Shown here: piece after piece, positions 1,784-64,000 of the stretch
Layout: the number at the start of each line of letters is the position of its first letter
How positions within the stretch are numbered: the first letter of the stretch is position 1
DNA from: Mytilus trossulus
Taxonomy: Eukaryota
Reading direction: 5' to 3'
DNA: 64,000 bases
Assembly: GCF_036588685.1 (NCBI RefSeq)
Contig: NC_086373.1
Span: 27,590,001-27,654,000, forward strand
The notes under the pieces: model-generated
Seen by the model: the letters and a program-made list of their open reading frames with translations, nothing else
What the model was told of the DNA's origin: nothing
Databases searched by the model: none
Translations under genes and position numbers: made by a program

Positions 1784-3146
1784 CAGCCGATTTCTTTGAG
1801 TGGTGTAGGGAAAGGCAGAATCTTTGGTATGCTTGCTTGTTAGCGGAACCATGAAGTAATTATTATGATATATAAACTATCCTCCTTTAAGAGTAGCCTA
1901 GTCCGACAGATATAACTAACGTATCTTTCTGTAAATAGATATAGGAAGATGTGGTGTGAGTGTCAATGAGATAACTCTCCATCCAAATAACAATTTAAAA
2001 AGTAAACCATTATAGGTTAAAGTACGGCTTTCAACACGGAGCCTTGGCTCACACCGAACAACAAGCTATAAAGGGCCCCAAAATTACTAGTGTAAAATCA
2101 TTAAAACGGGATAACCAACGGTCTAATCTATATAAACAAAACGAGAAACACGTATATATTACATAAACAAACGACAACTACTGTACATCAGATTCCTGAC
2201 TCAAGACAGGTGCAAACATTTGCAGCGGGATTAAACGTTTAAATGGATCCAAACCTTCTCCCTTTTTCTGAAACAATAGCAAAACATCACAACATAGAAA
2301 AACACACGATAAAATATCAATTGGCAGACTTAACTCAATCAAAAAACGTATGATTACACAATGAACGAATAAATTTGATATCTGAATACAAATGCACAAT
2401 TAATTAAATATTAGAGACAAACATGATTCATGACCAAAAAGCTAACAAACAAATTCAAATAAAGCCATGGCAGGACACCACTGAGAAATATTTAACCCTT
2501 CGAAAATATTGATCAATATTCACTTTAGAAACAAACCGGTTTTAAAAAAAATAATTATAATCTTGAAGTTTATACAAATGTAGTCAGAAAAAGTGAAAAA
2601 TTGAAGACATTACAAATAATCAAAGCTGGTGTACAGACAAGATCCATATAAATAAAAAAATAATAAAAAATAACAAAAAAGCATTATAAACAGCATCAAC
2701 AGGTCGAATTAACATGAAAATACGATATGAGAGTACTGGCAGTTACTTACAGCTAGTTAAAAGCCCAAACCAATAAATAATAAAAAAAAAATCATGCATC
2801 AGAGACTAAAATCAACTAAAACACATCCCAGGGATTTAGTATTTTAACGTCATTAATAGACATGACTTGTGCAATGCCAACAATAAATGTATCGGTAGTG
2901 GGATAGTGAAGAGCGACTTCTATAGAAATAAAAATTAACGTGTCTGTGTCTCTATACATCTCGCCTTAAAAGATAATGAAATTTAGTTATGTTTAAATTT
3001 GCTAATGACAAAATCAATAGAAGTGCCTGTAAGACTACTTCGAAACAAGGGTAGTATACCTTACCTAGTAATGACTGCACGGTTCAGCTAACAAGTAAGC
3101 TAACCAAGGATTCTATCTTTCCATCAACACTCAATGAAATCGGCTG
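1784..3146. mobile_element. TA-flanked MITE with long TIRs (CAG...CTG termini, Tc1/mariner-like) carrying a nested insertion
   Basis: TA|CAGCCGATTTCTTTGAGTG ... CACTCAATGAAATCGGCTG|TA; an uninterrupted relative lies at 53110-53382. Confidence 0.75.
1935..2893. mobile_element. Dispersed repeat (GAAGATGTGG family) nested in the MITE
   Basis: Colinear similarity to 29875-30570 (GAGATAACTCTCC, CTATAAAGGGCCCC, CCTGACT..GACAGG, GACTTGTGCAATGCCAA). Confidence 0.7.
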
Positions 3147-3147
3147 T

Positions 3148-3415
3148 AAATAGTTATCAAAAGTACCAGGATTATAATTTTATACGCCAGACGCGCGTTT
3201 CGTCTACATAAGACTCATCAGTGACGCTCAGATCAAAATAGTTAAAAAGCCAAACAAATACAAAGTTGAAGAGCATTGAGGACCCAAAATTCCAAAAAGT
3301 TGTGCCAAATACGGCTAAGGTAATCTACTCCTGGGGTAAGAAAATCCTTAGTTTTTCGAATAATTCAAAGTTTTGTAAACAGAAAATTTATAAAAATGAC
3401 CATATAAATCATTCC
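3148..3415 (-). mobile_element. Hammerhead-carrying ~350-bp repeat (retrozyme / Penelope-type), partial monomer
   Basis: Near-identical to 3488-3740; contains an intact hammerhead core on the minus strand. Confidence 0.85.
3184..3227 (-). ncRNA. Type I hammerhead ribozyme (intact core)
   Basis: Minus strand reads GCGUCA-CUGAUGA-GUCU(UAUGU)AGAC-GAAA-CGCGCG-UC/UGGCGU. This gives both conserved boxes, a 4-bp stem II, a minimal palindromic stem III, a GUC cleavage triplet and stem I GCGUCA:UGGCGU. Confidence 0.9.
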
Positions 3416-3487
3416 ATATTCGTAGCATTGAAAAAACAAAAGTGTACACCATATTCTTTAATAATCGTTTTGTTGTCAATATCATAA

Positions 3488-3910
3488 TTAGTTATCAAAG
3501 GTACCAGGATTATAATTTAGTACGCCAGACGCGCGTTTCGTCTACATAAGACTCATCAGTGACGCTCATATCAAAATATTTGTAAAGCCAAACAAGTAAA
3601 AAGTTGAAGAGCGTTGAGGATCCAAAAGTCCAAAAAATTGTGCCAAATACGGCTAAGGTAAACTATGCCTGGGATAAGAAAATCCTTAGTTTTTCGGTAA
3701 TTCAAAGTTTTGTAAATAGGAATTTATAAAATGACCACATTTTTTATATCCATGTCAACACCGAAGTGTTGACTACTGGGTTGGTGATACCTTCGGGGAC
3801 GAAACGTCCACCAGCAGTGGCATCGATCCAGTGTTGTAAATAGTTATCAAAGGTACCAGGATTATAATTTAGTCTACAATAGACTCATCAGTGACGCTCA
3901 TATCAAAATA
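3488..3910 (-). mobile_element. Retrozyme-like repeat: full 352-bp monomer plus the start of a second head-to-tail copy
   Basis: TAGTTATCAAAGGTACCAGG at 3489 and again at 3841 (period 352 bp); in the second copy the GAAA/stem III part of the hammerhead is deleted. Confidence 0.85.
3522..3565 (-). ncRNA. Type I hammerhead ribozyme (intact core)
   Basis: Same 44-nt sequence as 3184-3227. Confidence 0.9.
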
Positions 3911-3982
3911 TTATAAATGATCAATATCTGACTGTTTTAATCTCATTGAAGGAAGTAGATACATGAATTAGTTATAAAAAAA

Positions 3983-5308
3983 TTATGAAAACAAAGGAAA
4001 ATCTAGTACAATTCCAAGAATATACAATAAATGTGCTACTACCATATAAAGTGCACTGAAAATGCCAAAAACAAAGTCAAGTTCTTCTCCGACATTCTTC
4101 CAGGTAATCTCCTCTTTAGAGGTAAAAGAGTTGATTTCCTCACTATTCGTTCCTCTATACTGATACTCTGATCCGTAGAGTTTTATTTTACTGATATCCA
4201 AACTATCATTGCTTTCATGTTTGTCTGTATTCTCGTCACCTTTACCTTTCGCCCCTTTCCTGCAGCAGCAACCGCATCTAAGTACACGACAAATCTTCAC
4301 AAATCTTTCTCCAAGATATGAAACGGGAATATTTTCATCACGCAGATAATAACGTAGACTTGTAATGACTAGTATAACAATTACGCCACTAAATGCGACG
4401 TCAGCAAAAAGAAGAATTGATAATGTTGGTATTTGTGGATCTGAGATTGCCGGAAGACCAGAGGCGGAAATTGTTAGAAATACGGCAATAGCCAACAATA
4501 CTGTAATAGAAAATCCAACGCGTTCTCCTGAATCTGCTGGTAGTAGAAAGACAAATGGATTAAGAATACACATAAGAACTATTGGCAGTATTAGGTTGAA
4601 AACAAAAAACATAGGCTTTCTCTTCAGTTTCATATGAAAATTTGCCACCTGTGGAACGGCAATTTTGGTCAGATTCGTTTCAACCAAATCCCATGTTTTA
4701 TGTGGGACAAACCATTCAGTTATAAAAGCTGTTGGCCATAATATTACCTCTTTTTCGTCATATGTTGATAAAACAAATGCTAAAGTACATGTTTGTGTAT
4801 CGAATGGATAATCTGTAACATCAGCTTGGCATGAAATATCGAATGCATCGCTTGGAAACCAATCAATTTGTCCAGTATAATGCACCCTCTTTACACTATC
4901 ATCTTTATATAATATTTTTTGTTCTCCATACGGATTTGACATTATAAAGGTTGGTTTCCAAAATAATTCTTCATTGAATGTAAAGGAAGAAGCGCCATAT
5001 TCGCTAGGATCCCATGACACAGTATTGTCTCTCCACTGAACTCCAAAAAATCCATTTAAACTTAATTTTCCGGCAACTTCGTCGAATTCCTGAATATAAG
5101 TCATATGAAAATAAAAGTAAATTATAACAGGTTCGTCCCATTTGTTGACAGGTCTCACCTCTTTGTTTCTTCCATTTGTCACATTTTGTATAAGTTCCTG
5201 TATAGGTTTGTATTCCTCCTTTTTCGATTTATCTTCTTTCTCTTCATCAGCATTGGTATTTAGTAGAAATGATAATATTATAATGATAGAGCACCAATAA
5301 GAAAACAT
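3983..5308 (-). CDS. Intronless Cys-loop ligand-gated ion channel, divergent non-alpha nAChR-like subunit (441 aa)
   Basis: Signal peptide; VRPV, FDEV and WKP motifs; Cys-loop CQADVTDYPFDTQTC; KRKP-M1; PADSGER-M2; four TM segments; no vicinal cysteines. Confidence 0.93.
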   Translation of the reverse strand: MFSYWCSIIIILSFLLNTNADEEKEDKSKKEEYKPIQELIQNVTNGRNKEVRPVNKWDEPVIIYFYFHMTYIQEFDEVAGKLSLNGFFGVQWRDNTVSWDPSEYGASSFTFNEELFWKPTFIMSNPYGEQKILYKDDSVKRVHYTGQIDWFPSDAFDISCQADVTDYPFDTQTCTLAFVLSTYDEKEVILWPTAFITEWFVPHKTWDLVETNLTKIAVPQVANFHMKLKRKPMFFVFNLILPIVLMCILNPFVFLLPADSGERVGFSITVLLAIAVFLTISASGLPAISDPQIPTLSILLFADVAFSGVIVILVITSLRYYLRDENIPVSYLGERFVKICRVLRCGCCCRKGAKGKGDENTDKHESNDSLDISKIKLYGSEYQYRGTNSEEINSFTSKEEITWKNVGEELDFVFGIFSALYMVVAHLLYILGIVLDFPLFS

Positions 5309-6159
5309 TTTTACAACTCGCGTTTAAATTAAATCCAGTTTAAAATGAATCGTAGTAAATTGTTTAGTAAATATTTTTACGTTAATACCGTATTCATAAT
5401 ACCTATTCATGTGTGAAACACTCAAGAAGGCTTATTAAAGGTTATCTAATTACAATGAATGTTTGTCACTCTTACCCTTTAAAGCTTTTATCGTCTTTAT
5501 CCTTATGTAAAAAAAAAAGAATTTAGCGATAGTTATTATATATTGTTTAGTTAAGTATTTCTCCAAATACTTTTAAATAAACGATAATTTAATAGTTTTC
5601 TGGTGATTTCTGTTGGCATGCTAACCAATTTTGTTTAACTGATCTATTAATGTCTAATGGTTAAATGTAACCATATTTTTTTAACAAACAAATTGTTGTT
5701 TATACATATGACAAGCCACACCATAAAATATTTACACCGTTATTGGCAGTGGGTTGCTAAGTTATACAAAATGAAAAGTAATTTGTCCGGTTTTCCACTT
5801 ACCAACTTAAGGATGGTTCCTCCTCTATTTTTTTAATATTTGCCAGATTTTAAGAATCCACTGGTTTTATCCATGTATTAACATTTAAAAAATGTGCCTA
5901 GTAACCCCTACTTTTCTTTTCATGATTTTATAACATAAAGTTTAAAACGACATATTTCAAAATTTGATAAAATCTTTTTTTTCCATAGTTTTCCAACGTT
6001 AAATGTATAAAAAAGTCTAGACAGAATTATTTTCAGCCATTTCAATGGCTTATATCTGAAAAACAAAAACAAAAAACACATACTTTCTTTTTTTCTGCTT
6101 TTTATTTTTTTTATAAAAACTATCCATTCATAGCAGTCTTTTAAAAATCTTGTTTGTTT

Positions 6160-6887
6160 TTGTCTCGCCTTGACGGAGTCAAAAAGCGAGATAAAGATAT
6201 GCTGTTTCCGGCGTCGGCGACGACGATATCAAAAATGTATTAGTTTGTGATTAGGTCTAGTTTATGGTGAACCACACGTGATAGGTCAATCATATTTGGT
6301 ATGCAGTTGTATAAGCACTGGCACACCTAATTTCCTTGGAGATTATTTAGCTCTGTCCCCTCAGTTATGGTTTATTGACTTTGATTTTTTTCTCTATGTT
6401 ATCATGTATTAGTTTGTGATTAAGTCAGTTCAAGGGGAACCATTAGTGGTAGGCCAATGTTAATTGGTATTCAGTTGTATAAGCATTGGCACATCTCATT
6501 TCTATATATTTGGCCTCGACCCTCAGTCACAGTCTAATGACCTTGAACCTTATCTTAGTTTACATGTATTACTTTGTGCTTAGATCAGTTTAAGATGAAC
6601 TGCTAATGTAAAGTCAATTTTATTTGGTATGCAAATTTATTGGCATTTGCAAGTATCGTTTCCACGGAGATTATATAGCCCCACCCCTCTTCATGGTTCA
6701 TTGACCCTAAACCTTTTACATAGTTTACATGTTCATGTTTGTATTAAGGTTTGGGAACAACTTATAATAAGTCAATGGTATTTGGTAAGCAGTTGTATTG
6801 GCATCGGCACATCTCATTTACATGGAGATTGTTTAGCCATGTAACTCAGTCAGGGTTCATTGACATATCTCTGTGATAACAGTTTTT
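6160..6887 (+). mobile_element. Helentron/HINE-like non-autonomous element with four ~165-170-bp internal tandem units
   Basis: T-rich flank; 5' inverted TCTCGC..GCGAGA; CGGCGT/CGA microsatellite; units starting near 6237, 6406, 6566 and 6739; 3' hairpin CTGT-GATA-ACAG followed by Ts. Confidence 0.65.
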
Positions 6888-8501: not shown

Positions 8502-8559
8502 AAACGCGCGTCTGGCGTAAATATAAAATTTCAATCCTGGTATCTATGATGAGTTTATT
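8502..8559 (+). mobile_element. 3' stub of retrozyme-like repeat
   Basis: AAACGCGCGTCTGGCGT...CCTGGTATCTATGATGAGTTTATT. Confidence 0.75.
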
Positions 8560-9134
8560 CACCCCCATCTCATATGTAAGAATTTGTGTAGGTCTGACGA
8601 TCCAGTTTTCCGTGAAGACAGTCAGAGTACGACTAAATGGCAAACTAAATTTTTGACAGTTTAAATTTCCATTCTTTGAAATCAATTTTACGATTTTACA
8701 GAGTATGTTTTCTATAGAAAAGCTAAAAATCTAAATAGAAAGAGAGTATCGATGTATTTCTTCCAAATAATTAACTTTCATAAGTTTTAACTGCATTATC
8801 AGGAGATAACACTTTAATTTTAATAATAAATTTATTACACGAGAGATGGCCTAGTTCTGCCTGATGTTGTAATGAAATATTTTAATGATATCGTATTAGT
8901 GTAAGTGCGACTGCTAAGCTGACTGTATTTTTTTTCGTTTTTCAAAATTAAAAAAGTGTTAAAAACTATTTGAAAAAATATAATTTTCAATTGATTTTCA
9001 CAATGTCAGAGATGTATTCTATTGATTATGTTAAATTATAATTTCAAATTGTGAAATATCAAACAGTTGCATTCCAGGTTCATTCCGTTGCCTGTAAGAT
9101 TATTCATAATTACTTGATTGTGGAAGGATTAAAG

Positions 9135-10337
9135 ATGCTTGTTTTTATCATTTGTTTTTCTACTGTCAGTTTTTCTTTATGTCAAAACTCAAGTGATTTC
9201 AAAGCTCTGAAAAAGGAGCTATTCTTTTCAAAGGAATATGATAAAGATTCAAAACCTGTACAAGATTATAAGAGTACCATCTACGTAAATGTTGAATTGA
9301 CATTAAACTCACTTATAACACTCGATGAAGTTCAACAAAGATTAACAACTATTGGATACCTTCATATTAGCTGGTATGATGAGTTCCTAACATGGGACCG
9401 AACACAATATGGAGACTTAGATTATATATACCTTCCTCAGTCAAGCATCTGGAAACCGGATATAACTTTACAAGATAGTTATACAGAGATGGAAGAGCTA
9501 GGTTCCGATTTGATTTTGGCGACAATCAAACATGATGGTAGTGTCAGTTGGACACCATTTCAAGTGTTTAATTCATACTGCCCAGTCTCAATGACATTCT
9601 TTCCATTTGACAGGCAAACTTGTGAATTTGTTTTCGGAGCTTGGAGTATGCAAATGAACGATATTTCCCTTCTCATAACAAATGTATCAGGAATAGCATT
9701 AGAGCGCTCTATAAAGGAAAATACAATTTGGACGGTTGTTTCCACCTCAGTAAAAGCAACACAGTACCATGAAGAATCTAGAGTGATATTTTCTATCACA
9801 TTACAGAGGAAACCGTTGTATGTAATGATGCATTTAGTCCTCCCGTTAGTCCTATTAACACTTTTGAATCTGTTTACATTTGCCATACCTGCTGATAGTG
9901 GTGAACGCATGGGTTACACGGTAACCGTTTGGTTGTCCTTCGGTGTATTCCTTACTCTTGTTGGACAGTCTCTTCCAGAGAGTTCGGAATCCATATCTTT
10001 TATGGATATATTTATAGTGATGCAGCTTTTCCAAAGCACACTGGTAGTGTTACTTTCAGCCGTTTTATCCAGATTAATCGCTCGAAATGGACAGACATTT
10101 ATTTCGTCATGTCTCCTAAAACGCATTGTCACCTATAAGAGAGGAAAGAGTGTGAACACAGCATCGGAGATAAAGAACGATGAAAAGGAAACTCAAATTT
10201 ACATTACCTGGAAAGAGTATGTGTCCACTATTGATTTCTGCGTGTTTTGGTGTTTGCTGTCAATATGCATCCTACTGATAACTGCACTTTCATTCTACAC
10301 TGTTTACAAAGCTGAATATACGCTTTCAGGGGAATGA
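9135..10337 (+). CDS. Intronless non-alpha nAChR-like subunit (400 aa), paralog A
   Basis: First ATG at 9135 opens a signal peptide (the ORF-track start 9051 is GTG); WKPDITL; Cys-loop CPVSMTFFPFDRQTC; FGAW; PADSGER; four TMs. Confidence 0.93.
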   Translation: MLVFIICFSTVSFSLCQNSSDFKALKKELFFSKEYDKDSKPVQDYKSTIYVNVELTLNSLITLDEVQQRLTTIGYLHISWYDEFLTWDRTQYGDLDYIYLPQSSIWKPDITLQDSYTEMEELGSDLILATIKHDGSVSWTPFQVFNSYCPVSMTFFPFDRQTCEFVFGAWSMQMNDISLLITNVSGIALERSIKENTIWTVVSTSVKATQYHEESRVIFSITLQRKPLYVMMHLVLPLVLLTLLNLFTFAIPADSGERMGYTVTVWLSFGVFLTLVGQSLPESSESISFMDIFIVMQLFQSTLVVLLSAVLSRLIARNGQTFISSCLLKRIVTYKRGKSVNTASEIKNDEKETQIYITWKEYVSTIDFCVFWCLLSICILLITALSFYTVYKAEYTLSGE

Positions 10338-15285: not shown

Positions 15286-16488
15286 ATGATTGTTTTTATC
15301 ATTTGGATTTCTACTGTAAGTTTTTCTTTATGCCAAAACTCAAGTGATGTCAAAGCTTTGAAAAGAGAGCTATTCGTAACTAAGGAATATGATAAGGATT
15401 CCAAACCTGTACAAGATTATGAGAGTACCATCTACGTAAATGTTGAATTGACATTAAACTCACTAATAACACTCGATGAAGTTCAACAAAGATTAACAAC
15501 TATTGGATACCTTAATATAAGTTGGCATGATGAGTTTCTAACATGGGACCGAAAACAATATGGAGACTTGGACTATATATACCTTCCTCAGTCAGAGATC
15601 TGGAAACCGGATATAACCTTACAAGATAGTTATACAGGGATGGAAGAGCTTGGTTCTGATTTGATATTGGCGACAATCAGACATGATGGTAGTGTCAATT
15701 GGACACCGTTTCAAGTATTTAATTCATACTGTCCAGTCTCAATGACGTTCTTTCCATTTGACAGGCAAACTTGCGAATTTGTTTTCGGAGCTTGGAGTAT
15801 GCGTCTGAAAGATGTTTCCCTTCTAATAAAAAATGTGTCAGAAATAGCATTGGAGCGCTCAATAAAAGAAAATACAATTTGGACGGTTGTTTCAACCTCA
15901 GCAAGTACAGCACAGTACCATGAGGAATCTCTAGTGATATTTTCTATCACATTACAGAGGAAACCGTTGTATGTTATGCTGAATATGGTTCTCCCATTAG
16001 TCCTTTTATCACTTTTGAATCTGTTTACATTTGCCATACCTGCTGATTGTGGTGAACGCATGGGTTACACGGTAACCGTTTGGTTGTCCTTCGGTGTGTT
16101 CCTTACTATAATTGGACAGTCTTTGCCAGAGAGTTCGGAATCCATATCTTTTATGGATATATTTATAGTGATGCAGCTATTCCAAAGTACACTGGTGGTG
16201 TTGCTCTCAACCATTGTATCCCGATGTTGTGCTCGAAATGGACAGACATTTATTTCGTCATGTCTCCTGAAACGCATTGTAACCTATAAGAGAGGAAAGA
16301 GTGTGAACACATCATCGGAGATTACGAACGATGCAAAGAAAACTCAAATTTACATTACATGGAAAGAGTATGTGTCCACTATTGATTTCTGTTTGTTTTG
16401 GTGTTTGCTGTCAATATGCATACTTTCAATTACCGCACTTTCATTTTACACCGTTTACAAAGCTGAGTACACGCTTTCAGGAAAATGA
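15286..16488 (+). CDS. Intronless non-alpha nAChR-like subunit (400 aa), paralog B
   Basis: ATG at 15286 (the ORF-track start 15214 is TTG); same motifs and length as paralog A; about 45 aa differences counted by eye. Confidence 0.93.
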   Translation: MIVFIIWISTVSFSLCQNSSDVKALKRELFVTKEYDKDSKPVQDYESTIYVNVELTLNSLITLDEVQQRLTTIGYLNISWHDEFLTWDRKQYGDLDYIYLPQSEIWKPDITLQDSYTGMEELGSDLILATIRHDGSVNWTPFQVFNSYCPVSMTFFPFDRQTCEFVFGAWSMRLKDVSLLIKNVSEIALERSIKENTIWTVVSTSASTAQYHEESLVIFSITLQRKPLYVMLNMVLPLVLLSLLNLFTFAIPADCGERMGYTVTVWLSFGVFLTIIGQSLPESSESISFMDIFIVMQLFQSTLVVLLSTIVSRCCARNGQTFISSCLLKRIVTYKRGKSVNTSSEITNDAKKTQIYITWKEYVSTIDFCLFWCLLSICILSITALSFYTVYKAEYTLSGK

Positions 16489-16979: not shown

Positions 16980-18145
16980 TCTGTCACTAAGAAGCGGAAT
17001 CCTATTCATTATGAAAACCTCGTCTCTGGTTATACCCTTCTTCATTGTTATATCTTGCCACTAATTGATTATTCATGAATACCTCATCCTTGGTCATATC
17101 CTTCTTCATTGTTATATCTTGCCATTAATTGATTATTGTGGTATAGGTTGGGTAAGATCTCTCTAACTAAGAAGCGGAACCCAATTCATCATGAATACCT
17201 CATCCTTGGTTATACCCTTCTTCATTGTTATATCTTTCCACCAATTGATTAATCATGAATACCTCATCTCTGGTTATACCCTTCTTCATTGTTAAATCTT
17301 GCCACTAATTGATTAATCATGAATACCTCATCTCGGGTTATACCCTTCTTCATTGTTATATCTTGCCACTAATTGATTAATTATGAATACCTCATCTCTG
17401 GTTATACCCTTCTTCGTTGTTATATCTTGCCACTAATTGATTAATCATGAATACCTCATCTCTGGTTATACCCTTCTTCATTGTTATATCTTGCCATTAA
17501 TTGATTAATCATGAATATCTCATCCTTGGTCATACACGTTGTACCCTTCTTCATTGTTATATCTTGCCACTAATTGATTATTGTGGTATAGTTTGGAGTA
17601 TATCGCTCTCACTGAGAAGCGGAACCTAATTCATCATGAATACCTCATCATTGGTCATACCCTTCGTCATTGTTATATCTTTCAACCAATTGATTAATCA
17701 TGAATACCTCATCTCTGGTTATACCTTCTTCATTGTTATATCTTGCCACTAGTTGGTAAATCAGGAATACCTCATCTCTGGTTATACCCTTCTTCATTGT
17801 TATATCTTGCCACTAATTGATTAATCATGAATACCTCATCTCTGGTTATACCCTTCTTCATTGTTATATCATGCCACTGATTTATTAATCATGAATACCT
17901 CATCTCTGGTTATACCCTTCTTCATTGTTATATCTTGCCACTAATTGATTAATCATGAATACCTCATCTCGGGTTATACCCTTCTTCATTGTTATATCTT
18001 GCCACTAATTGGTTAATCATGAATACCTCATCGTTGGTTATACCCTTCTTCGTTGTTATATCTTGCCACTAATTGATTAATCATGAATACCTCATCCTTG
18101 GTCATACCCTTCTTCAGTGTTATATCTTGTCACTAATTGATTACA
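16980..18145 (+). repeat. 64-bp minisatellite (~16 units, with interspersed longer variant) derived from LINE coding sequence
   Basis: Unit CATGAATACCTCATCTCTGGTTATACCCTTCTTCATTGTTATATCTTGCCACTAATTGATTAAT; long variants translate YILPLIDYCGIVWS. Confidence 0.9.
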
Positions 18146-19178: not shown

Positions 19179-19380
19179 ACAACAAAAGTCACCAATGAAA
19201 TGTTGAAGTCGATTGGTTAAAAACCAGTAAGATCATGGAAGTATATTTATATTGACAAAGGTTAAATCGAGTATCCCGGGCATAAATACGATTTTTTATT
19301 CACCATTTAAGCTGTTAAAAATGTACAAAACCCTAACTTGTATCGTGATGGCTAAAGACTCATCGGTACTCACTAACATA

Positions 19381-19561
19381 TTACCTTAGATGTATTTGGC
19401 AAAACGTTTAGGAATTTTGGTCCTTAATGCTCTTCAACTTCTTACTGTATTTGGCTTTTTTAAATTTTTGGATTCGAGCGTCACTGATGCGTCTTTTGTA
19501 GACGAAACGCGAGTCTGGCCTATATATACAAAATTAAGTCCTGGTATCTATGATGAGTTTA
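19381..19561 (+). mobile_element. 5'-truncated retrozyme-like insertion inside the first satellite monomer
   Basis: Splits AACATA|TGTCA relative to copy 1; ends GGTATCTATGATGAGTTTAT. Confidence 0.85.
19478..19521 (+). ncRNA. Degenerate type I hammerhead ribozyme
   Basis: GCGUCA-CUGAUGC-GUCU(UUUGU)AGAC-GAAA-CGCGAG-UC/UGGCCU; the last A of CUGAUGA is mutated, so probably impaired. Confidence 0.65.
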
Positions 19562-19564
19562 TAT

Positions 19565-22500
19565 ATGTCACCCGTCCAGACAAAATTATAGCGAGACCCT
19601 CACAGCTAAGTATGGTTTTAGATATCGTTATAGTTTAAAACTCGTCGGTACTCAGTAACATTTGTCACCTGTCGAGACAACATTAAAACGTGACCCTCAT
19701 AGCTAAGTATGGTTTTAGATATCGTTATGGCTTAAGACTCATCGGTGCCCAGTAACATCTGTCACCTGTCGAGACAACATTTATGCGAGACCCTCACTGC
19801 TAAGTATGGTTTATGATATCGTTATGGCTTAAGATTCATCGGTACTCAGTAACATTTGTCACCAGTCGAGACAACATTAAAACGTGACCCTCATAGCTAA
19901 GTATGGTTTATGATATCGTTATGGCTTAAGATTCATCGGTACTCAGTAACATTTGTCACCAGTCGAGACAACATTAAAACGTGACCCTCACAGCTAAGTA
20001 TGGTTTTAGATATCGTTATAGTTTAAAACTCGTCGGTACTCAGTAACATTTGTCACCTGTCGAGATAACATTAAAACGTGACCCTCATAGCTAAGTATGG
20101 TTTATGATATCGTTATGGTTTAAAACTCATCGGTACTCAGTAACATCTGTCACCTGTCGAGACAACATTAAAACGTGACCCTCATAGCTAAGTATGGTTT
20201 ATGATATCGTTATGGCTTAAGACTCATCGGTACTCAGTAACATTTATCACCTGTCGAGACAACATTAAAGCGAGAACCTCACTGCTAAGTATGGTTTATG
20301 ATATCGTTATGGCTCAAGACTCCTCGTTACTCAGTAACATCTGTCACCTGTCGAGACAACATTAAAGCGAGACCCTCACTGCTAAGTATGGTTTATGATA
20401 TCGTTATGGCTTAAGACTCATCGGTACTCAGTAACATCTGTCACCTGTCGACGAGACAGCATTGAAGCGGGACCCTCACTGCTAAGTATGGTTTATGATA
20501 TCGTTATGGCTTAAGATTCATCGGTACTCAGTAACATCTGTCACCTATCGAGACAACATTAAAGCGAGACCCTCACAGCTAAGTATGGTTTCTGATATCG
20601 TTATGGCTTAAGACTCATCGGTACTCAGTAACATCTGTCACCTGTCGAGACAACATTAAAGCGAGACCCTCACTGCTAAGTATGGTTTATGATATCGTTA
20701 TGGCTTAAGACTCATCGGTACTCAATAACATCTGTCACCTGTCGACGAGACAGCATTGAAGCGGGACCCTCACTGCTAAGTATGGTTTATGATATCGTTA
20801 TGGCTTAAGATTCATCGGTACTCAGTAACATCTGTCACCTATCGAGACAACATTAAAGCGAAATCCTCACAGCTAAGTATGGTTTCTGATATCGTTATGG
20901 CTTAAGACTCATCGGTACTCAGTAACATCTGTCACCTGTCGAGACAACATTAAAGCGAGACCCTCACTGCTAAGTATGGTTTATGATATCGTTATGGCTT
21001 AAGACTCATCGGTACTCAATAACATCTGTCACCTGTCGAGACAACATTAAAACGTGACCCTCATAGCTAAGTATGGTTTATGATATCGTTATGGTTTAAG
21101 ACTCATCGGTACTCAGTAACATCTGTCACCTATCGAGACAACATTTAAGCGAGACCCTCACTGATAAGTATGGTTTATGATATCGTTATGGCTTAAGACC
21201 CATCGGTACTCAGTAACATCTGTCACCTGTCGAGACAACATTAAAGCGAGACCCTCACTGCTAAGTATGGTTTATGATATCGTTATGGCTTAAGACCCAT
21301 CGGTACTCAGTAACATCTGTCACCTGTCGAGACAACATTAAAACGTGACCCTCATAGCTAAGTATGGTTTATGATATCGTTATGGCTTAAGATTCATCGG
21401 TACTCAGTAACATTTGTCACCAGTCGAGACAACATTAAAACGTGACCCTCACAGCTAAGTATGGTTTTAGATATCGTTATAGTTTAAAACTCGTCGGTAC
21501 TCAGTAACATTTGTCACCTGTCGAGACAACATTAAAACGTGACCCTCATAGCTAAGTATGGTTTATGATATCGTTATGGTTTAAAACTCATCGGTACTCA
21601 GTAACATCTGTCACCTGTCGAGACAACATTAAAACGTGACCCTCACAGCTAAGTATGGTTTATGATATCGTTATGGCTTAAGACTCATCGGTACTCAGTA
21701 ACATCTGTCACCTGTCGAGACAACATTTATGCGAGACCCTCACTGATAAGTATGGTTTATGATATCGTTATGGCTTAAGATTCATCGGTACTCAGTAACA
21801 TCTGTCACCTATCGAGACAACATTTAAGCGAGACCCTCACTGCTAAGTATGGTTTATGATATCGTTATGGCTTAAGACTCCTCGGTACTCAATAACATCT
21901 GTCACCTATCGAAACAACATTAAAGCGAGACCCTCACTGCTAAGTATGGTTTATGATATCGTTATGGCTGAAGACTCCTCGGTACTCAGTAACATCTGTC
22001 ACCTATCGAAACAACATTAAAGCGAGACCCTCACTGCTAAGTATGGTTTATGATATCGTTATGGCTTAAGACTCATCGGTACTCAGTAACATCTGTCACC
22101 TATTGAGACAACATTTAAGCGAGACCCTCACAGCTAAGTATGGTTTTAGATATCGTTTTAGCTTCAGACTCATCGGTACTCGGTAACATCTGTCACCTGT
22201 CGAGACAACATTAAAGCGAGACCCTCACTGCTAAGTATGGTTTATGATATCGTTATGGCTTAAGACTCATCGGTACTCAGTAACATCTGTCACCTGTCGA
22301 GACAACATTTATGCGAGACCCTCACTGATAAGTATGGTTTATGATATCGTTATGGCTTAAGATTCATCGGTACTCAGTAACATCTGTCACCTATCGAGAC
22401 AACATTTAAGCGAGACCCTCACTGCTAAGTATGGTTTATGATATCGTTATGGGTTAAGACTCCTCGGTACTCAATAACATCTGTCACCTATCGAAACAAC

Positions 22501-25500
22501 ATTAAAGCGAGACCCTCACTGCTAAGTATGGTTTATGATATCGTTATGGCTGAAGACTCATCGGTACTCAGTAACATCTGTCACCTATCGAAACAACATT
22601 AAAGCGAGACCCTCACTGCTAAGTATGGTTTATGATATCGTTATGGCTTAAGATTCATCGGTACTCAGTAACATCTGTCACCTATCGAAACAACATTAAA
22701 ACGTGACCCTCACAGCTAAGTATGGTTTATGATATCGTTATGGTTTAAGACTCATCGGTACTCAGTAACATCTGTCACCTATCGAGACAACATTTAAGCG
22801 AGACCCTCACTGCTAAGTATGGTTTATGATATCGTTATGGCTTAAGACTCATAGTTACTCAGTAACATCTGTCACCTGTCGAGACAACATTAAAACGTGA
22901 CCCTCATAGCTAAGTATGGTTTATGATATCGTTATGGCTTAAGACTCATCGGTACTCAGTAACATTTATCACCTGTCGAGACAACATTAAAACGTGACCC
23001 TCACAGCTAAGTATGGTTTATGATATCGTTATGGCTTAAGACTCATCGGTACTCAGTAACATCTGTCACCTGTCGAGACAACATTAAAACGTGACCCTCA
23101 CAGCTAAGTATGGTTTTAGATATCGTTATAGTTTAAAACTCGTCGGTACTCAGTAACATTTGTCACCTGTCGAGACAACATTAAAACGTGACCCTCATAG
23201 CTAAGTATGGTTTATGATATCGTTATGGTTTAAAACTCATCGGTACTCAGTAACATCTGTCACCTGTCGAGACAACATTAAAACGTGACCCTCACAGCTA
23301 AGTATGGTTTATGATATCGTTATGGCTCAAGACTCCTCGGTACTCAGTAACATCTGTCACCTGTCGAGACAACATTAAAGCGAGACCCTCACTGCTAAGT
23401 ATGGTTTATGATATCGTTATGGCTTAAGACTCATCGGTACTCAGTAACATCTGTCACCTATTGAGACAACATTTAAGCGAGACCCTCACAGCTAAGTATG
23501 GTTTTAGATATCGTTTTAGCGTCAGACTCATCGGTACTCGGTAACATCTGTCACCTGTCGAGACAACATTAAAGCGAGACCCTCACTGCTAAGTATGGTT
23601 TATGATATCGTTATGGCTTAAGACTCATCGGTACTCAGTAACATCTGTCACCTGTCGAGACAACATTTATGCGAGACCCTCACTGATAAGTATGGTTTAT
23701 GATATCATTATGGCTTAAGATTCATCGGTACTCAGTAACATCTGTCACCTATCGAGACAACATTTAAGCGAGACCCTCACTGCTAAGTATGGTTTATGAT
23801 ATCGTTATGGCTTAAGACTCCTCGGTACTCAATAACATCTGTCACCTATCGAAACAACATTAAAGCGAGACCCTCACTGCTAAGTATGGTTTATGATATC
23901 GTTATGGCTGAAGACTCATCGGTACTCAGTAACATCTGTCACCTATCGAAACAACATTAAAGCGAGACCCTCACTGCTAAGTATGGTTTATGATATCGTT
24001 ATGGCTTAAGATTCATCGGTACTCAGTAACATCTGTCACCTATCGAAACAACATTAAAACGTGACCCTCACAGCTAAGTATGGTTTATGATATCGTTATG
24101 GTTTAAGACTCATCGGTACTCAGTAACATCTGTCACCTATCGAGACAACATTTAAGCGAGACCCTCACTGCTAAGTATGGTTTATGATATCGTTATGGCT
24201 TAAGACTCATAGTTACTCAGTAACATCTGTCACCTGTCGAGACAACATTAAAACGTGACCCTCATAGCTAAGTATGGTTTATGATATCGTTATGGCTTAA
24301 GACTCATCGGTACTCAGTAACATTTATCACCTGTCGAGACAACATTAAAACGTGACCCTCACAGCTAAGTATGGTTTATGATATCGTTATGGCTTAAGAC
24401 TCATCGGTACTCAGTAACATCTGTCACCTGTCGAGACAACATTAAAACGTGACCCTCATAGCTAAGTATGGTTTATGATATCGTTATGGCTTAAGATTCA
24501 TCGGTACTCAGTAACATTTGTCACCAGTCGAGACAACATTAAAACGTGACCCTCACAGCTAAGTATGGTTTTAGATATCGTTATAGTTTAAAACTCGTCG
24601 GTACTCAGTAACATTTGTCACCTGTCGAGACAACATTAAAACGTGACCCTCATAGCTAAGTATGGTTTATGATATCGTTATGGTTTAAAACTCATCGGTA
24701 CTCAGTAACATCTGTCACCTGTCGAGACAACATTAAAACGTGACCCTCACAGCTAAGTATGGTTTTTGATATCGTTATGGCTCAAGACTCCTCGGTACTC
24801 AGTAACATCTGTCACCTGTCGAGACAACATTAAAGCGAGACCCTCACTGCTAAGTATGGTTTATGATATCGTTATGGCTTAAGACTCATCGGTACTCAGT
24901 AACATCTGTCACCTATTGAGACAACATTTAAGCGAGACCCTCACAGCTAAGTATGGTTTTAGATATCGTTTTAGCTTCAGACTCATCGGTACTCGGTAAC
25001 ATCTGTCACCTGTCGAGACAACATTAAAGCGAGACCCTCACTGCTAAGTATGGTTTATGATATCGTTATGGCTTAAGACTCATCGGTACTCAGTAACATC
25101 TGTCACCTGTCGAGACAACATTTATGCGAGACCCTCACTGATAAGTATGGTTTATGATATCGTTATGGCTTAAGATTCATCGGTACTCAGTAACATCTGT
25201 CACCTGTCGAGACAACATTTATGCGAGACCCTCACTGCTAAGTATGGTTTATGATATCGTTATGGCTTAAGACCCATCGGTGCCCAGTAACATCTGTCAC
25301 CTATCGAGACAACATTTAAGCGAGACCCTCACTGCTAAGTATGGTTTATGATATCGTTATGGCTGAAGACTCATCGGTACTCAGTAACATCTGTCACCTA
25401 TCGAAACAACATTAAAGCGAGACCCTCACTGCTAAGTATGGTTTATGATATCGTTATGGCTTAAGATTCATCGGTACTCAGTAACATCTGTCACCTGTCG

Positions 25501-27570
25501 AGACAACATTTATGCGAGACCCTCACTGCTAAGTATGGTTTATGATATCGTTATGGCTTAAGACCCATCGGTACTCAGTAACATCTGTCACCTGTCGAGA
25601 CAACATTTATGCGAGACCCTCACTGCTAAGTATGGTTTATGATATCGTTATGGCTTAAGACTCATCGGTGCCCAGTAACATCTGTCACCTGTCGAGACAA
25701 CATTAAAACGTGACCCTCATAGCTAAGTATGGTTTATGATATCGTTATGGCTTAAGACTCATCGGTGCCCAGTAACATCTGTCACCTGTCGAGACAACAT
25801 TAAAACGTGACCCTCACTGCTAAGTATGGTTTATGATATCGTTATGGTTTAAGACTCATCGGTACTCAGTAACATCTGTCACCTATCGAGACAACATTTA
25901 AGCGAGACCCTCACTGCTAAGTATGGTTTATGATATCGTTATGGTTTAAGACTCATCGGTACTCAGTAACATCTGTCACCTGTCGAGACAACATTAAAAC
26001 GTGACCCTCATAGCTAAGTATGGTTTATGATATCGTTATGGCTTAAGACTCATCGGTACTCAGTAACATTTATCACCTGTCGAGACAACATTAAAACGTG
26101 ACCCTCACAGCTAAGTATGGTTTTAGATATCGTTATGGCTTAAGACTCATCGGTACTCAGTAACATCTGTCACCTGTCGAGACAACATTTATGCGAGACC
26201 CTCACTGCTAAGTATGGTTAATGATATCGTTATGGCTTAAGACTCATCGGTACTCAGTAACATCTGTCACCTGTCGAGACAACATTTATGCGAGACCCTC
26301 ACTGCTAAGTATGGTTTATGATATCGTTATGGCTTAAGACTCATCGGTACTCAGTAACATCTGTCACCAGTCGAGACAACATTAAAACGTGACCATCATA
26401 GCTAAGTATGGTTTTAGATATCGTTATGGCTTAAGACTCCTCGGTACTCAGTAACATCTGTCACCTGTCGAGACAACATTAAAGCGAGACCCTCACTGCT
26501 AAGTATGGTTTTAGATATCGTTATGGCTTAAGACTCCTCGGTACTCAGTAACATATGTCACCTGTCGAGACAACATTAAAGCGAGACCCTCACTGCTAAG
26601 TATGGTTTATGATATCGTTATGGCTTAAGACTCATCGGTGCCCAGTAACATCTGTCACCTATCGAGACAACATTTAAGCGAGACCCTCACTGCTAAGTAT
26701 GGTTTATGATATCGTTATGGTTTAAGACTCATCGGTGCCCAGTAACATCTGTCACCTATCGAGACAACATTTAAGCGAGACCCTCACTGCTAAGTATGGT
26801 TTATGATATCGTTATGGCTTAAGACTCCTCGGTACTCAGTAACATCTGTCACCTGTCGAGACAACATAAAAGCGAGACCCTCACTGCTAAGTATGGTTTT
26901 AGATATCGTTATGGCTTAAGACTCCTCGGTACTCAGTAACATATGTCACCTGTCGAGACAACATTAAAGCGAGACCCTCACTGCTAAGTATGGTTTATGA
27001 TATCGTTATGGTTTAAGACTCATCGGTGCCCAGTAACATCTGTCACCTATCGAGACAACATTAAAGCGAGACCCTCACTGCTAAGTATGGTTTATGATAT
27101 CGTTATGGCTTAAGACTCCTCGGTACTCAGTAACATATGTCACCTGTCGAGACAACATTAAAGCGAGACCCTCACTGCTAAGTATGGTTTATGATATCGT
27201 TATGGCTTAAGACTCATCGGTGCCCAGTAACATCTGTCACCTGTCGAGACAACATTAAAGCGAGACCCTCACTGCTAAGTATGGTTTATGATATCGTTAT
27301 GGTTTAAGACTCATCGGTGCCCAGTAACATCGGTCACCTATCGAGACAACATTTAAGCGAGACCCTCACTGCTAAGTATGGTTTATGATATCGTTATGGT
27401 TTAAGACTCATCGGTGCCCAGTAACATCTGTCACCTATCGAGACAACATTTAAGCGAGACCCTCACTGCTAAGTATGGTTTATGATATCGTTATGGTTTA
27501 AGACTCATCGGTACTCAATAACAGCCGTCACCTGTCGAGACAACATGAAAACGAGACCCTGACAGTTTTG
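19565..27570. repeat. 97-bp satellite array, about 82 copies, with higher-order structure
   Basis: Unit AAGTATGGTTTATGATATCGTTATGGCTTAAGACTCATCGGTACTCAGTAACATCTGTCACCTGTCGAGACAACATTAAAGCGAGACCCTCACTGCT; period measured as 20581 to 20678. Confidence 0.97.
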
Positions 27571-36079: not shown

Positions 36080-37115
36080 TTTAATGTTTGTCTGCATCGT
36101 TGACGTATTACCATTGGTTTTTTTTCTATCATTGAGGTATAATTATCGTTTGATGTTTGAATAACGTGTTGTCATTTCTGTTTCCTTGACGTTTGCTTTC
36201 TCATTTACTTATTATCGTTTGATATCTCATTGACCTAAATCGTTTGATATCCTTAAACACATTACCACTTAATATCTAACTGTATAATAGCGTGAAAACA
36301 TCTCGCTGACTTGTTACCGTTTGAAGTCTTGTTGACGTATTACCGTTTGGAACATCACTGACGTATTATCGATTGATATCTCGTTGACCTATTAACGTTT
36401 GATATCCAGTTAACGTTTTACCGTCGATATCTAATTGAAATATTACCTTTTGATATCTAATGGAAGTCTTGGTGTTTGATATCTTATTAAAGTTATACCG
36501 GTACCGTTGACATCTAATTGACCTAAATCGTTTAATATCCTATAAAAGCATTACCGTTTGATATCTCACTGACATATTACTGTTTAATATCTGGTTGACG
36601 TATTCCTAATTGGGATATCGTTGACGTATGATCGTTTGATATCTCGTTGACTTATAAAAAACGTTTGATACCCTATTGACGTTTACCGTCGTTATCTAAT
36701 TGCAATATTACTATTTGATATCCCGTTGATGTATGGCCGTGTGATATCCAATAGACGTATTATCGTTGATATCTCGTTAACATAATTATCGTTTGATATT
36801 TCTTTAACATATTACTGTTTGATATATTTTTGACGCAATACCGTTGATATCTCATTGACGTATTACCATTTGCTCTGTCATTCACATAAATCGTTTAATA
36901 TCATAAAAACGCAGTTGCATATCGTTTGGGACATCACTGACGTATTGATCACCGTTTGATATATTTTTGGCGTATTTCCGTGAACATTGATATCTCGTTG
37001 ACGTTTTATCAATTTTAAATATGTCCTTGACATACAATTATTTGATATGTCGTTGACGTTTTATCTTTCAATATCTCGTTGACGTATTACCGTTTCATAT
37101 CTCGTTGACGTATTA
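36080..37115. repeat. Degenerate 26-bp minisatellite (roughly 40 units)
   Basis: Consensus ATATCTCGTTGACGTATTACCGTTTG; best-preserved units at 37071-37116. Confidence 0.85.
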
Positions 37116-62551: not shown

Positions 62552-64000
62552 AAACCAGATGCTCCGCAGGGCGTAGCTTTATACGACCGCAGAGGTTGAA
62601 CCCTGAACGGTTGGGGCAAGTATGGACACAACATTCAAGCTGGATTCCGCTCTAAATTTGGATTGTGATTAAATAGTTGACACAGCATAGGTTTCTGACA
62701 CAGAATGAATGTATTCAAATGAACTTAAAATTTTTGTTTTCTCTTAGAGCAATTCACTATGCTGTTGAATATTAATCCTCTCAAAAAAATGTTTGAAGAA
62801 ATTTTCTTTTTATTTATGAAATTTCAAATGAGAAAAATTGAACCCAATTTTTTAATCACATCCCCCTTTCCCTTATTCCAAAACTAATTTCAATTAAAAT
62901 ATTCTAATGGAGTTTGCAACAATAACTACTCATTTAAATACATCATAAAATATTAAGATGTAAAAAAACTGCTTGTTATCACTGAATGGTAAAGATTATT
63001 TAAATTTATCAGTTGGTAGTAAAAAGTGAATATACATTGTATATTGTATATAACAAAGATTTAAGTTGATTCTGGACAAAGAAAGATAACTCCAATTAAA
63101 AAAAATTCTTGCAGATATTTCTTGCTTACTATACTGGACAAAGAAAGATAACTCTTAATTAAAAAAAATTTTGCTATTTCACAATATTGTGAAATTAGTT
63201 ATTTCTTGCCATTGCACAATACTGTGCAATTGAAAAGACTTGCTATTGCAAAATACTTAATATAATAATTTTAGATCCTGATTTGGACCAACTTGAAAAC
63301 TGGGCCCATAATCAAAAATCTAAGTACATGTTTAGATTCAGCATATCAAAGAGGCCCAAGAAATTAATTTTTGTTAAAATCAAACTTGGTTTAATTTTGG
63401 ACCCTTTGCACTTTAATTTAGACCAATTTTAAAACTGGACCAAAAATTAAGAATCTACATACACAGTTAGATTTGGCATATCAAAGAACCCCAATTATTC
63501 AATTTTTGATGAAATCAAACAATGTTTAATTTTGGACCTCGATTTGGGCCAACTTGAAAACTGGGCCAATAATCAAAAATCTAAGTACATTTTTAGATTC
63601 AGCATATCAAAGAGGCCCAAGAAATTAATTTTTGTTAAAATCAAACTAAGTTTAATTTTGGACCCTTTGGACCTTAATGTAGACCAATTTGAAAACGGGA
63701 CCAAAAATTAAGAATCTACATACACAGTTAGATTCGGCATATTAAAGAACCCCAATTATTCAATTTTGATGAAATCAAACAAAGTTTAATTTTGGACCCT
63801 TTGGGCCCCTTTTTCCTAAATTTTTTGGACTAAAACTCCCAAAATTAATACCAACCTTCCTTTTATAGTCATAAACCTTGTGTTTAAATTTCATAGATTT
63901 CTATTTACTTATACTAAAGCTATGGTGCAAAAACCAAGAACAATGCTTATTTGGGTCCCTTTTTGGCCCCTAATTCCTAAACTGTTGGGACCAAAACTCC
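62552..64000 (-). mobile_element. Helentron/HINE-like element, 3' end and internal tandem repeats, running out of the window
   Basis: AAACCAG plus terminal hairpin ATGCTC-CGCA-GGGCGT; ~260-bp internal duplications at 63280-63800. Confidence 0.6.

Follow-up and report, generated by a model that had tools for sequence, protein, structure and literature searches.

The closest described systems to the locus reported here are the non-LTR retrozymes of mussels and frogs, the hammerhead ribozymes of rodent 3' UTRs and the intronless receptor genes of molluscs. In Mytilus galloprovincialis, a non-LTR retrozyme is described whose repeats of 350-390 bp hold about 5,000 type I hammerheads and whose circular RNA is abundant; two mussel hammerhead families are reported, and the retrozyme hammerhead, which has few of the bases for loop-loop contact, cleaves in vitro at about 0.1/min (PMC7229834). 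Genic insertion of retrozymes appears to be selected against in Xenopus (bioRxiv 10.64898/2026.07.22.740005). The Clec2 ribozymes are described as discontinuous, conserved across several mammals and able to lower reporter output (PMC2950038), and intronless nAChR retrogenes are described in bivalves (PMC6896357).

We analysed a window of 64,000 nucleotides of Mytilus trossulus DNA, for which an earlier note had proposed that sense-strand ribozymes behind a receptor gene may cleave its transcript. The minus-strand nAChR-like coding sequence that the note had placed with its end at 3983 was confirmed, as a profile search found both Pfam domains, Neur_chan_LBD and Neur_chan_memb, over their cut-offs in the ORF 5308-3983, and the features behind it are collected in Table 1. 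The Cys-loop of the encoded subunit is C160-C174; its ligand-binding domain contains no vicinal cysteines, which makes it a non-alpha type by that criterion.

Table 1. Features of the receptor gene and its 3' flank, in positions of the window; distances are counted from the stop codon along the strand of the gene.
Feature	Position	Strand	Remarks
Single-exon Cys-loop (nAChR-like) receptor subunit ORF, 441 aa	3983..5308	minus	probable-RNA contig cover from 5325/5329
Unique proximal 3' flank, 65 nt	3918..3982	minus	probable-RNA contig cover
ATTAAA, proximal candidate poly(A) signal	3936..3941	minus	+42; sequence motif
Retrozyme insertion A, about 1.2 monomers, older subfamily	3485..3917	minus	candidate 8-nt target duplication
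Dead hammerhead remnant	3868..3897	minus	20-nt deletion takes GAAA, stem III and cleavage site; nearest of the three to the gene
Intact type I hammerhead 1	3522..3565	minus	predicted cut after C3528, 455 nt past stop
Host spacer, 77 nt	3408..3484	minus	single-copy in genome; separates A from B
ATTAAA, distal, probably ancestral poly(A) signal	3457..3462	minus	+521; followed by CA and 11-nt U/G run
Retrozyme insertion B, 5'-truncated 263-nt piece, young subfamily	3145..3407	minus	candidate 5-nt duplication
Intact type I hammerhead 2	3184..3227	minus	predicted cut after C3190, 793 nt past stop

The receptor gene has many relatives, with at least 95 similar single-exon Cys-loop matches in the genome (291 candidates, 95 scored). 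Two more single-exon Cys-loop genes, mutually 89% identical, lie in the window at 9135-10337 (+) and about 15286-16482 (+). A paralog 73% identical to the focal gene is found 27 kb off, with a broken copy containing many stops in between (G000:C1:27567095-27568417 and 27572145-27573428). Upstream of the receptor gene, a diverged tandem repeat of about 160 bp occupies 6222-6842.

Both intact motifs are, judged from their sequence, real type I hammerheads and more than chance resemblances. They consist of identical 44-nt sequences on the strand of the receptor gene and present the CUGANGA, GAAA and NUH core with stems I, II and III in type I order, the core being unchanged and 12 of 12 pairs standard. 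Their CUGAUGA boxes start 424 and 762 nt beyond the stop, in line with the distances of about 420 and 760 nt given by the earlier note, whose coordinates were right. A search of 901 nt returned a full-length match to RF00163 with 33 bits against a gathering score of 34 (E 3.3e-6), while searching the whole window gave no match at gathering level. Self-cleavage at the NUH site is predicted for both. Secondary-structure prediction disfavoured the active fold of hammerhead 1 in its context by 10.9-13.3 kcal/mol, compared with 8.1-9.1 kcal/mol for a young array copy; we give this little weight, because the prediction takes in neither tertiary contacts nor magnesium and the fold of the young copy was disfavoured too. 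The upstream base suspected of disfavouring the fold is common to all 24 of 24 subfamily relatives.

The dead remnant has a deletion junction that occurs at two places in the genome. An unrelated copy, L253 (G000:C7:80449082-80449114), has the identical 20-nt core loss, which suggests that short direct repeats give rise to this deletion repeatedly. At L066, L098, L131, L150, L153, L171 and L220 there is a second type I hammerhead family, distinguished by a CUGAAGA core and a different stem II; the 355-nt monomer of the local family gives no match to the member at L066.

By the features tested, the local elements are metazoan non-LTR retrozymes and ordinary insertions of an already described element. 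Such retrozymes are hammerhead units of 150-450 bp with many dispersed and tandem copies, no coding capacity, a GC content under 50% and target-site duplications of >4 bp when present. The unit here is a 355-nt monomer with 34% GC (over 3915-3147), and it has no coding capacity, its sole frame being an 81-codon stop-to-stop stretch on the opposite strand. Across the 1.30-Gb genome, exact matches to the 44-nt core number 9,492 (reversed control 0); they lie scattered as well as in long tandem arrays with a spacing of 354-355 nt. The candidate target-site duplications of A (8 nt) and B (5 nt) are both AT-rich.

The retrozyme array that the earlier note had described from about 70 bp past the stop has its start where proposed, as the repeat begins at 3917, 66 nt past the stop; it is not an array, as it resolves into two separate insertions. 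A single tandem array was ruled out because A and B belong to different subfamilies and 77 single-copy nucleotides lie between them. Element A is 86-88% identical to the young monomer and 94-95% to the nearest copies of its own subfamily, with about 3% private differences, and it opens with the dead hammerhead; element B matches a young-subfamily monomer at 100% identity. Both stop about 43-45 nt past the cut site, as do most of the copies retrieved. On its far side, B adjoins one end of an inverted-repeat element that is older and for which the genome has 1,577 candidate copies.

The arms of this inverted-repeat element (3150-3032 and 1899-1780) agree at 77% of 120 nt, and each outer end carries TA. 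In other copies the arms lie within about 270 nt of each other; here, 1.1 kb separates them. The element is MITE-like. Five more retrozyme fragments in the window (7237-7063, 8502-8563, 12618-11970, 13955-13768 and 19380-19554) are decayed to 72-85% identity with the young monomer, and none of the five has an intact core by the rule used. Other repeats of the window are a 97-bp satellite at 19566-27560 (82 copies, 93% matches), some units of which contain CTGAAGA with no GAAA-closed hammerhead among them, a perfect 33-bp minisatellite at 644-776, and 64-bp, 26-bp and 135-bp tandem arrays at 17003-18143, 36190-37115 and 63266-63803.

The position of an intact hammerhead behind a gene was compared with control loci, to all of which one rule for intact hammerheads of either local family was applied. 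The Cys-loop set comprised 94 loci (95 matches minus one duplicate hit, with pseudogene-like loci kept), to which 20 further Cys-loop loci were added; the C1q set consisted of last exons, taken from 30 loci and from 80 of 120 other rows so as to avoid close neighbours and small contigs. A sense intact hammerhead lay within 1 kb of the stop at 2 of the 93 other Cys-loop loci, 0 of the 20 further ones and 0 of the 110 C1q loci, which is about 1% of control genes (2/223); an antisense one was found at 1/223. In each of the two control genes with such a sense hammerhead, ATTAAA or AATAAA precedes it. Within 500 nt of the stop, none of the 223 controls had a sense intact hammerhead, and the focal gene is the only one of 224 examined that does, having been chosen for that reason. 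Copy number by itself predicts a sense core within 500 nt for 0.06-0.18% of genes; with an assumed total of 30,000 genes, these would be 18-55. The placement is thus uncommon per gene and expected many times per genome; it is not clearly beyond chance and likely due to it.

A sense-strand bias near Cys-loop genes was considered, as the 10 intact hammerheads (9 insertions) in the 94 Cys-loop loci are all sense. It was rejected, because the retrozyme fragments at these loci taken together are balanced (sense:antisense 12:7 downstream, 11:10 upstream) and two replicate sets failed to reproduce it: the intact hammerheads of the C1q loci, a test set beforehand, gave 2:3 downstream and 13:8 upstream, and the 20 new Cys-loop loci gave 1:3 and 0:1. 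The C1q loci (L147-L226, L117-L146) had fewer intact insertions downstream (5 in 429 kb) than upstream (21 in 430 kb), on either strand, and 31 retrozyme fragments downstream versus 50 upstream of the last exons; sense cores were not depleted upstream, where much of the sequence is presumably intron.

Selection on the core of hammerhead 1 was not detected either. Compared with 24 subfamily relatives, the private differences of element A fall on none of the 44 core positions and on 11 of the 339 outside (P 0.23, a comparison of weak power), and 23 of the 24 relatives keep an intact core as well. Among the positions with such private bases are 3834, 3827, 3792, 3781, 3750, 3742, 3717, 3662, 3613 and 3582. 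The intact core of B needs no selection, since B is identical to young copies. Conservation of the Clec2 type, that is, beyond neutral expectation or across homologous genes, was likewise not found: apart from the P value above, no element lies within 1.5 kb of the closest paralog (73% identical). The controls lend no support to a special or selected arrangement.

AATAAA is absent from the strand of the gene between 3983 and 2600, which bears out the earlier observation of no clear AATAAA before the first intact hammerhead. As a premise that this stretch holds no poly(A) signal, the observation is weakened by the proximal ATTAAA, which the note had missed together with the distal one. ATTAAA is the second commonest poly(A) signal, and AATAAA is missing from the first 420 nt at 38 of the 94 paralogous loci. 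Five candidate signals can be named, three of them weak ones within A (ACTAAA 3873, TATAAA 3748 and TATAAA 3728). The tract behind the distal ATTAAA is the best of the five, with a U fraction of 0.50 and a U/G run of 11 nt compared with 0.42 and 5 nt for the proximal one, and this motif would stand 88 nt from the stop if element A were left uncounted. For these two reasons, the distal motif is probably the ancestral signal of the receptor gene. The predicted cut site of hammerhead 1 sits 66 nt before it.

Transcription was assessed in the assembled contigs of 6 among 24 runs; most RNA designations of these runs are guesses, and we therefore speak of probable-RNA runs. The full-length receptor message assembles as one contig in two of them, X2 and X3 of one study, whose contigs span 5325-3888 and 5329-3884 with 4 and 9 differing letters. 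The contig of X12 stops at 4014, and X18 contributes two divergent pieces within the ORF. The unique upstream bins 5400-5569 have no cover in X2, X3, X12 and X18, which fits RNA. Constraint on the ORF was also sought in the contig differences; among those listed, 16 of 21 were synonymous in the divergent X18 and 3 of 11 in X12, and this approach was dropped as mixed.

X10, a transcriptome-sized run of another study and organism label, also reaches 3888. The DNA run X4, from a third organism label, likewise gets to this point and ends there; the contig ends at 3888 and 3884 are therefore not RNA ends, and 3888 is the place where unique sequence meets the repeat. The 5' junction of insertion A is present in runs of the organism labels A, B and C, so that the insertion is common to three labels, which neutrality and function both allow. 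Poly(A) cleavage usually falls 10-30 nt past the signal. The contigs of X2, X3 and X10 pass this window of the proximal ATTAAA, running about 50 nt beyond the motif and about 30 nt into A, which provides some support that the proximal signal is at least leaky, with some read-through into A. The first ribozyme met by such read-through is the dead remnant.

Several observations on cover were set aside. The spacer at 3422-3473 is bare in X2, X3 and X10, and its use as evidence for the mRNA end failed the control, as the DNA run X4 is bare there too. In X2 and X3, no depth was seen at 3720-3726 and no contig depth for A's own letters at 3834, 3827, 3628 and 3613; these gaps were discounted because contigs drop rare variants inside a far deeper repeat. 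Among the joints listed, none skips A or B, the stretch compared being one that leaves out the far flank of B. Sequence of the retrozyme family is abundant in the probable-RNA runs, with head-to-tail joints in contigs; tandem arrays give the same joints, and none of them can be placed at this locus.

Taken together, we favour the reading that the locus holds two independent sense retrozyme copies that are likely unselected passengers, and that most mature mRNA ends before 3528; we put its probability at roughly 0.55. We infer that A inserted first, 66 nt past the stop, and B later. The insertion of A would have shifted the probable ancestral poly(A) signal 433 nt away, to a place behind hammerhead 1. 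Transcripts would now enter the start of A with its dead ribozyme and acquire their poly(A) tail under the proximal ATTAAA or one of the weak signals of A, an end favoured by the recovery of a full-length message and by the wide spread of the allele. In that case, the intact hammerheads would be present in no RNA other than read-through or post-cleavage RNA, which they would cut slowly.

It is conceivable, though we lean against it, that the distal ATTAAA is still used, with mRNA ends near 3445, and that hammerhead 1, lying in the 3' UTR, trims some poly(A) tails as an incidental effect tolerated because it is slow. Such use would fit the read-through that three probable-RNA runs show up to 3888 or beyond, the CA and U/G tract of a signal so near the stop before A arrived, and a core that is intact and identical to the common one; the few exonic retrozymes of Xenopus (0.24-0.32%) are also described as tending toward 3' UTRs (bioRxiv 10.64898/2026.07.22.740005). 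It has to contend with the proximal ATTAAA available at +42, with the fold predicted to be disfavoured in context, and with the listed contigs, 0 of which link the gene to 3528. We judge it unlikely that, A having split the ancestral 3' UTR, a parasitic ribozyme common to several mussel species trims the tail of the receptor mRNA, with perhaps dozens to hundreds of such genes in this genome.

Domestication of the insertion into a negative control element of the Clec2 kind, one that sets the level or 3' end of the receptor mRNA, appears improbable. The absence of excess core conservation in a comparison of weak power, a closest paralog free of the element, replicate sets with neither enrichment nor strand bias, and the fact that the dead copy is the one nearest the gene all speak against domestication, although A is old enough to be common to three organism labels, its core is intact despite about 3% drift in the rest of the element, and a precedent exists in the rodent Clec2 3' UTR, where the ribozyme cuts reporter output by 80% (PMC2950038). 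We give very little credence to the proposal that transcription from the receptor promoter, with cuts at both 3528 and 3190, yields a meaningful supply of circular retrozyme RNA. An RNA of monomer size could be set free by two hammerheads that lie 338 nt apart on one strand, and host ligases are described to make circles of such RNAs in vitro (PMC7229834). The stretch set free here would, however, be a chimera in which 43 nt of element are followed by 77 nt of host DNA and another 218 nt of element, with about 94 nt of the 355-nt monomer missing; since it holds host DNA and is single-copy, and so has not spread in this genome, the locus is no ordinary source of retrozyme circles, and the claim of the earlier note to this effect finds no support. 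The transcript would also have to pass two ATTAAA signals, and thousands of other cores exist, some of them in long tandem arrays.

On present evidence, the element is already described, its insertion here is nothing unusual, and the locus is of little importance. If cleavage of the receptor mRNA were demonstrated, the locus would provide a rare example from nature of a host message cut by a retrozyme hammerhead; searches of an open-access library, judged by titles and abstract openings, listed none for molluscs. Mussels would then become a good system for studying how thousands of RNAs that cleave themselves are tolerated or put to use by their hosts. If a ribozyme born by A trimmed the tail, the locus would offer an invertebrate, transposon-born counterpart of the Clec2 ribozymes. 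A test of cleavage would be convenient here, since three cores stand in a row, one dead, one intact and old, one intact and young.

The focal gene resembles the intronless molluscan nAChR retrogenes (PMC6896357) in being a single-exon Cys-loop subunit within a tandem cluster; it was assigned to the family by sequence and differs in its ligand-binding domain without vicinal cysteines. Like the non-LTR retrozymes in last exons of Xenopus, whose rare genic copies are mostly described in 3' UTRs (Li, Clavereau, Pollet 2026, bioRxiv 10.64898/2026.07.22.740005), the local copies stand behind a coding sequence; that survey is annotation-based and contains no mollusc data, with 0 occurrences of 'Mytilus'. 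The arrangement recalls the rodent Clec2 3' UTR hammerheads (PMC2950038), with a sense hammerhead past the stop, possibly before the poly(A) signal, that could sever the tail, but local hammerhead 1 is a contiguous mobile-element core without a conservation signal, and its cleavage is predicted. The closest counterpart is the non-LTR retrozyme of M. galloprovincialis (Cervera and de la Pena 2020, PMC7229834). The local copies differ in being a pair of truncated insertions from different subfamilies rather than a tandem array, with cleavage again a prediction; they share with that retrozyme, matched by description and not by clone sequence, the type I hammerhead, the AT-rich repeats of about 350-390 bp, the thousands of copies without LTR or ORF and the abundance in RNA runs.
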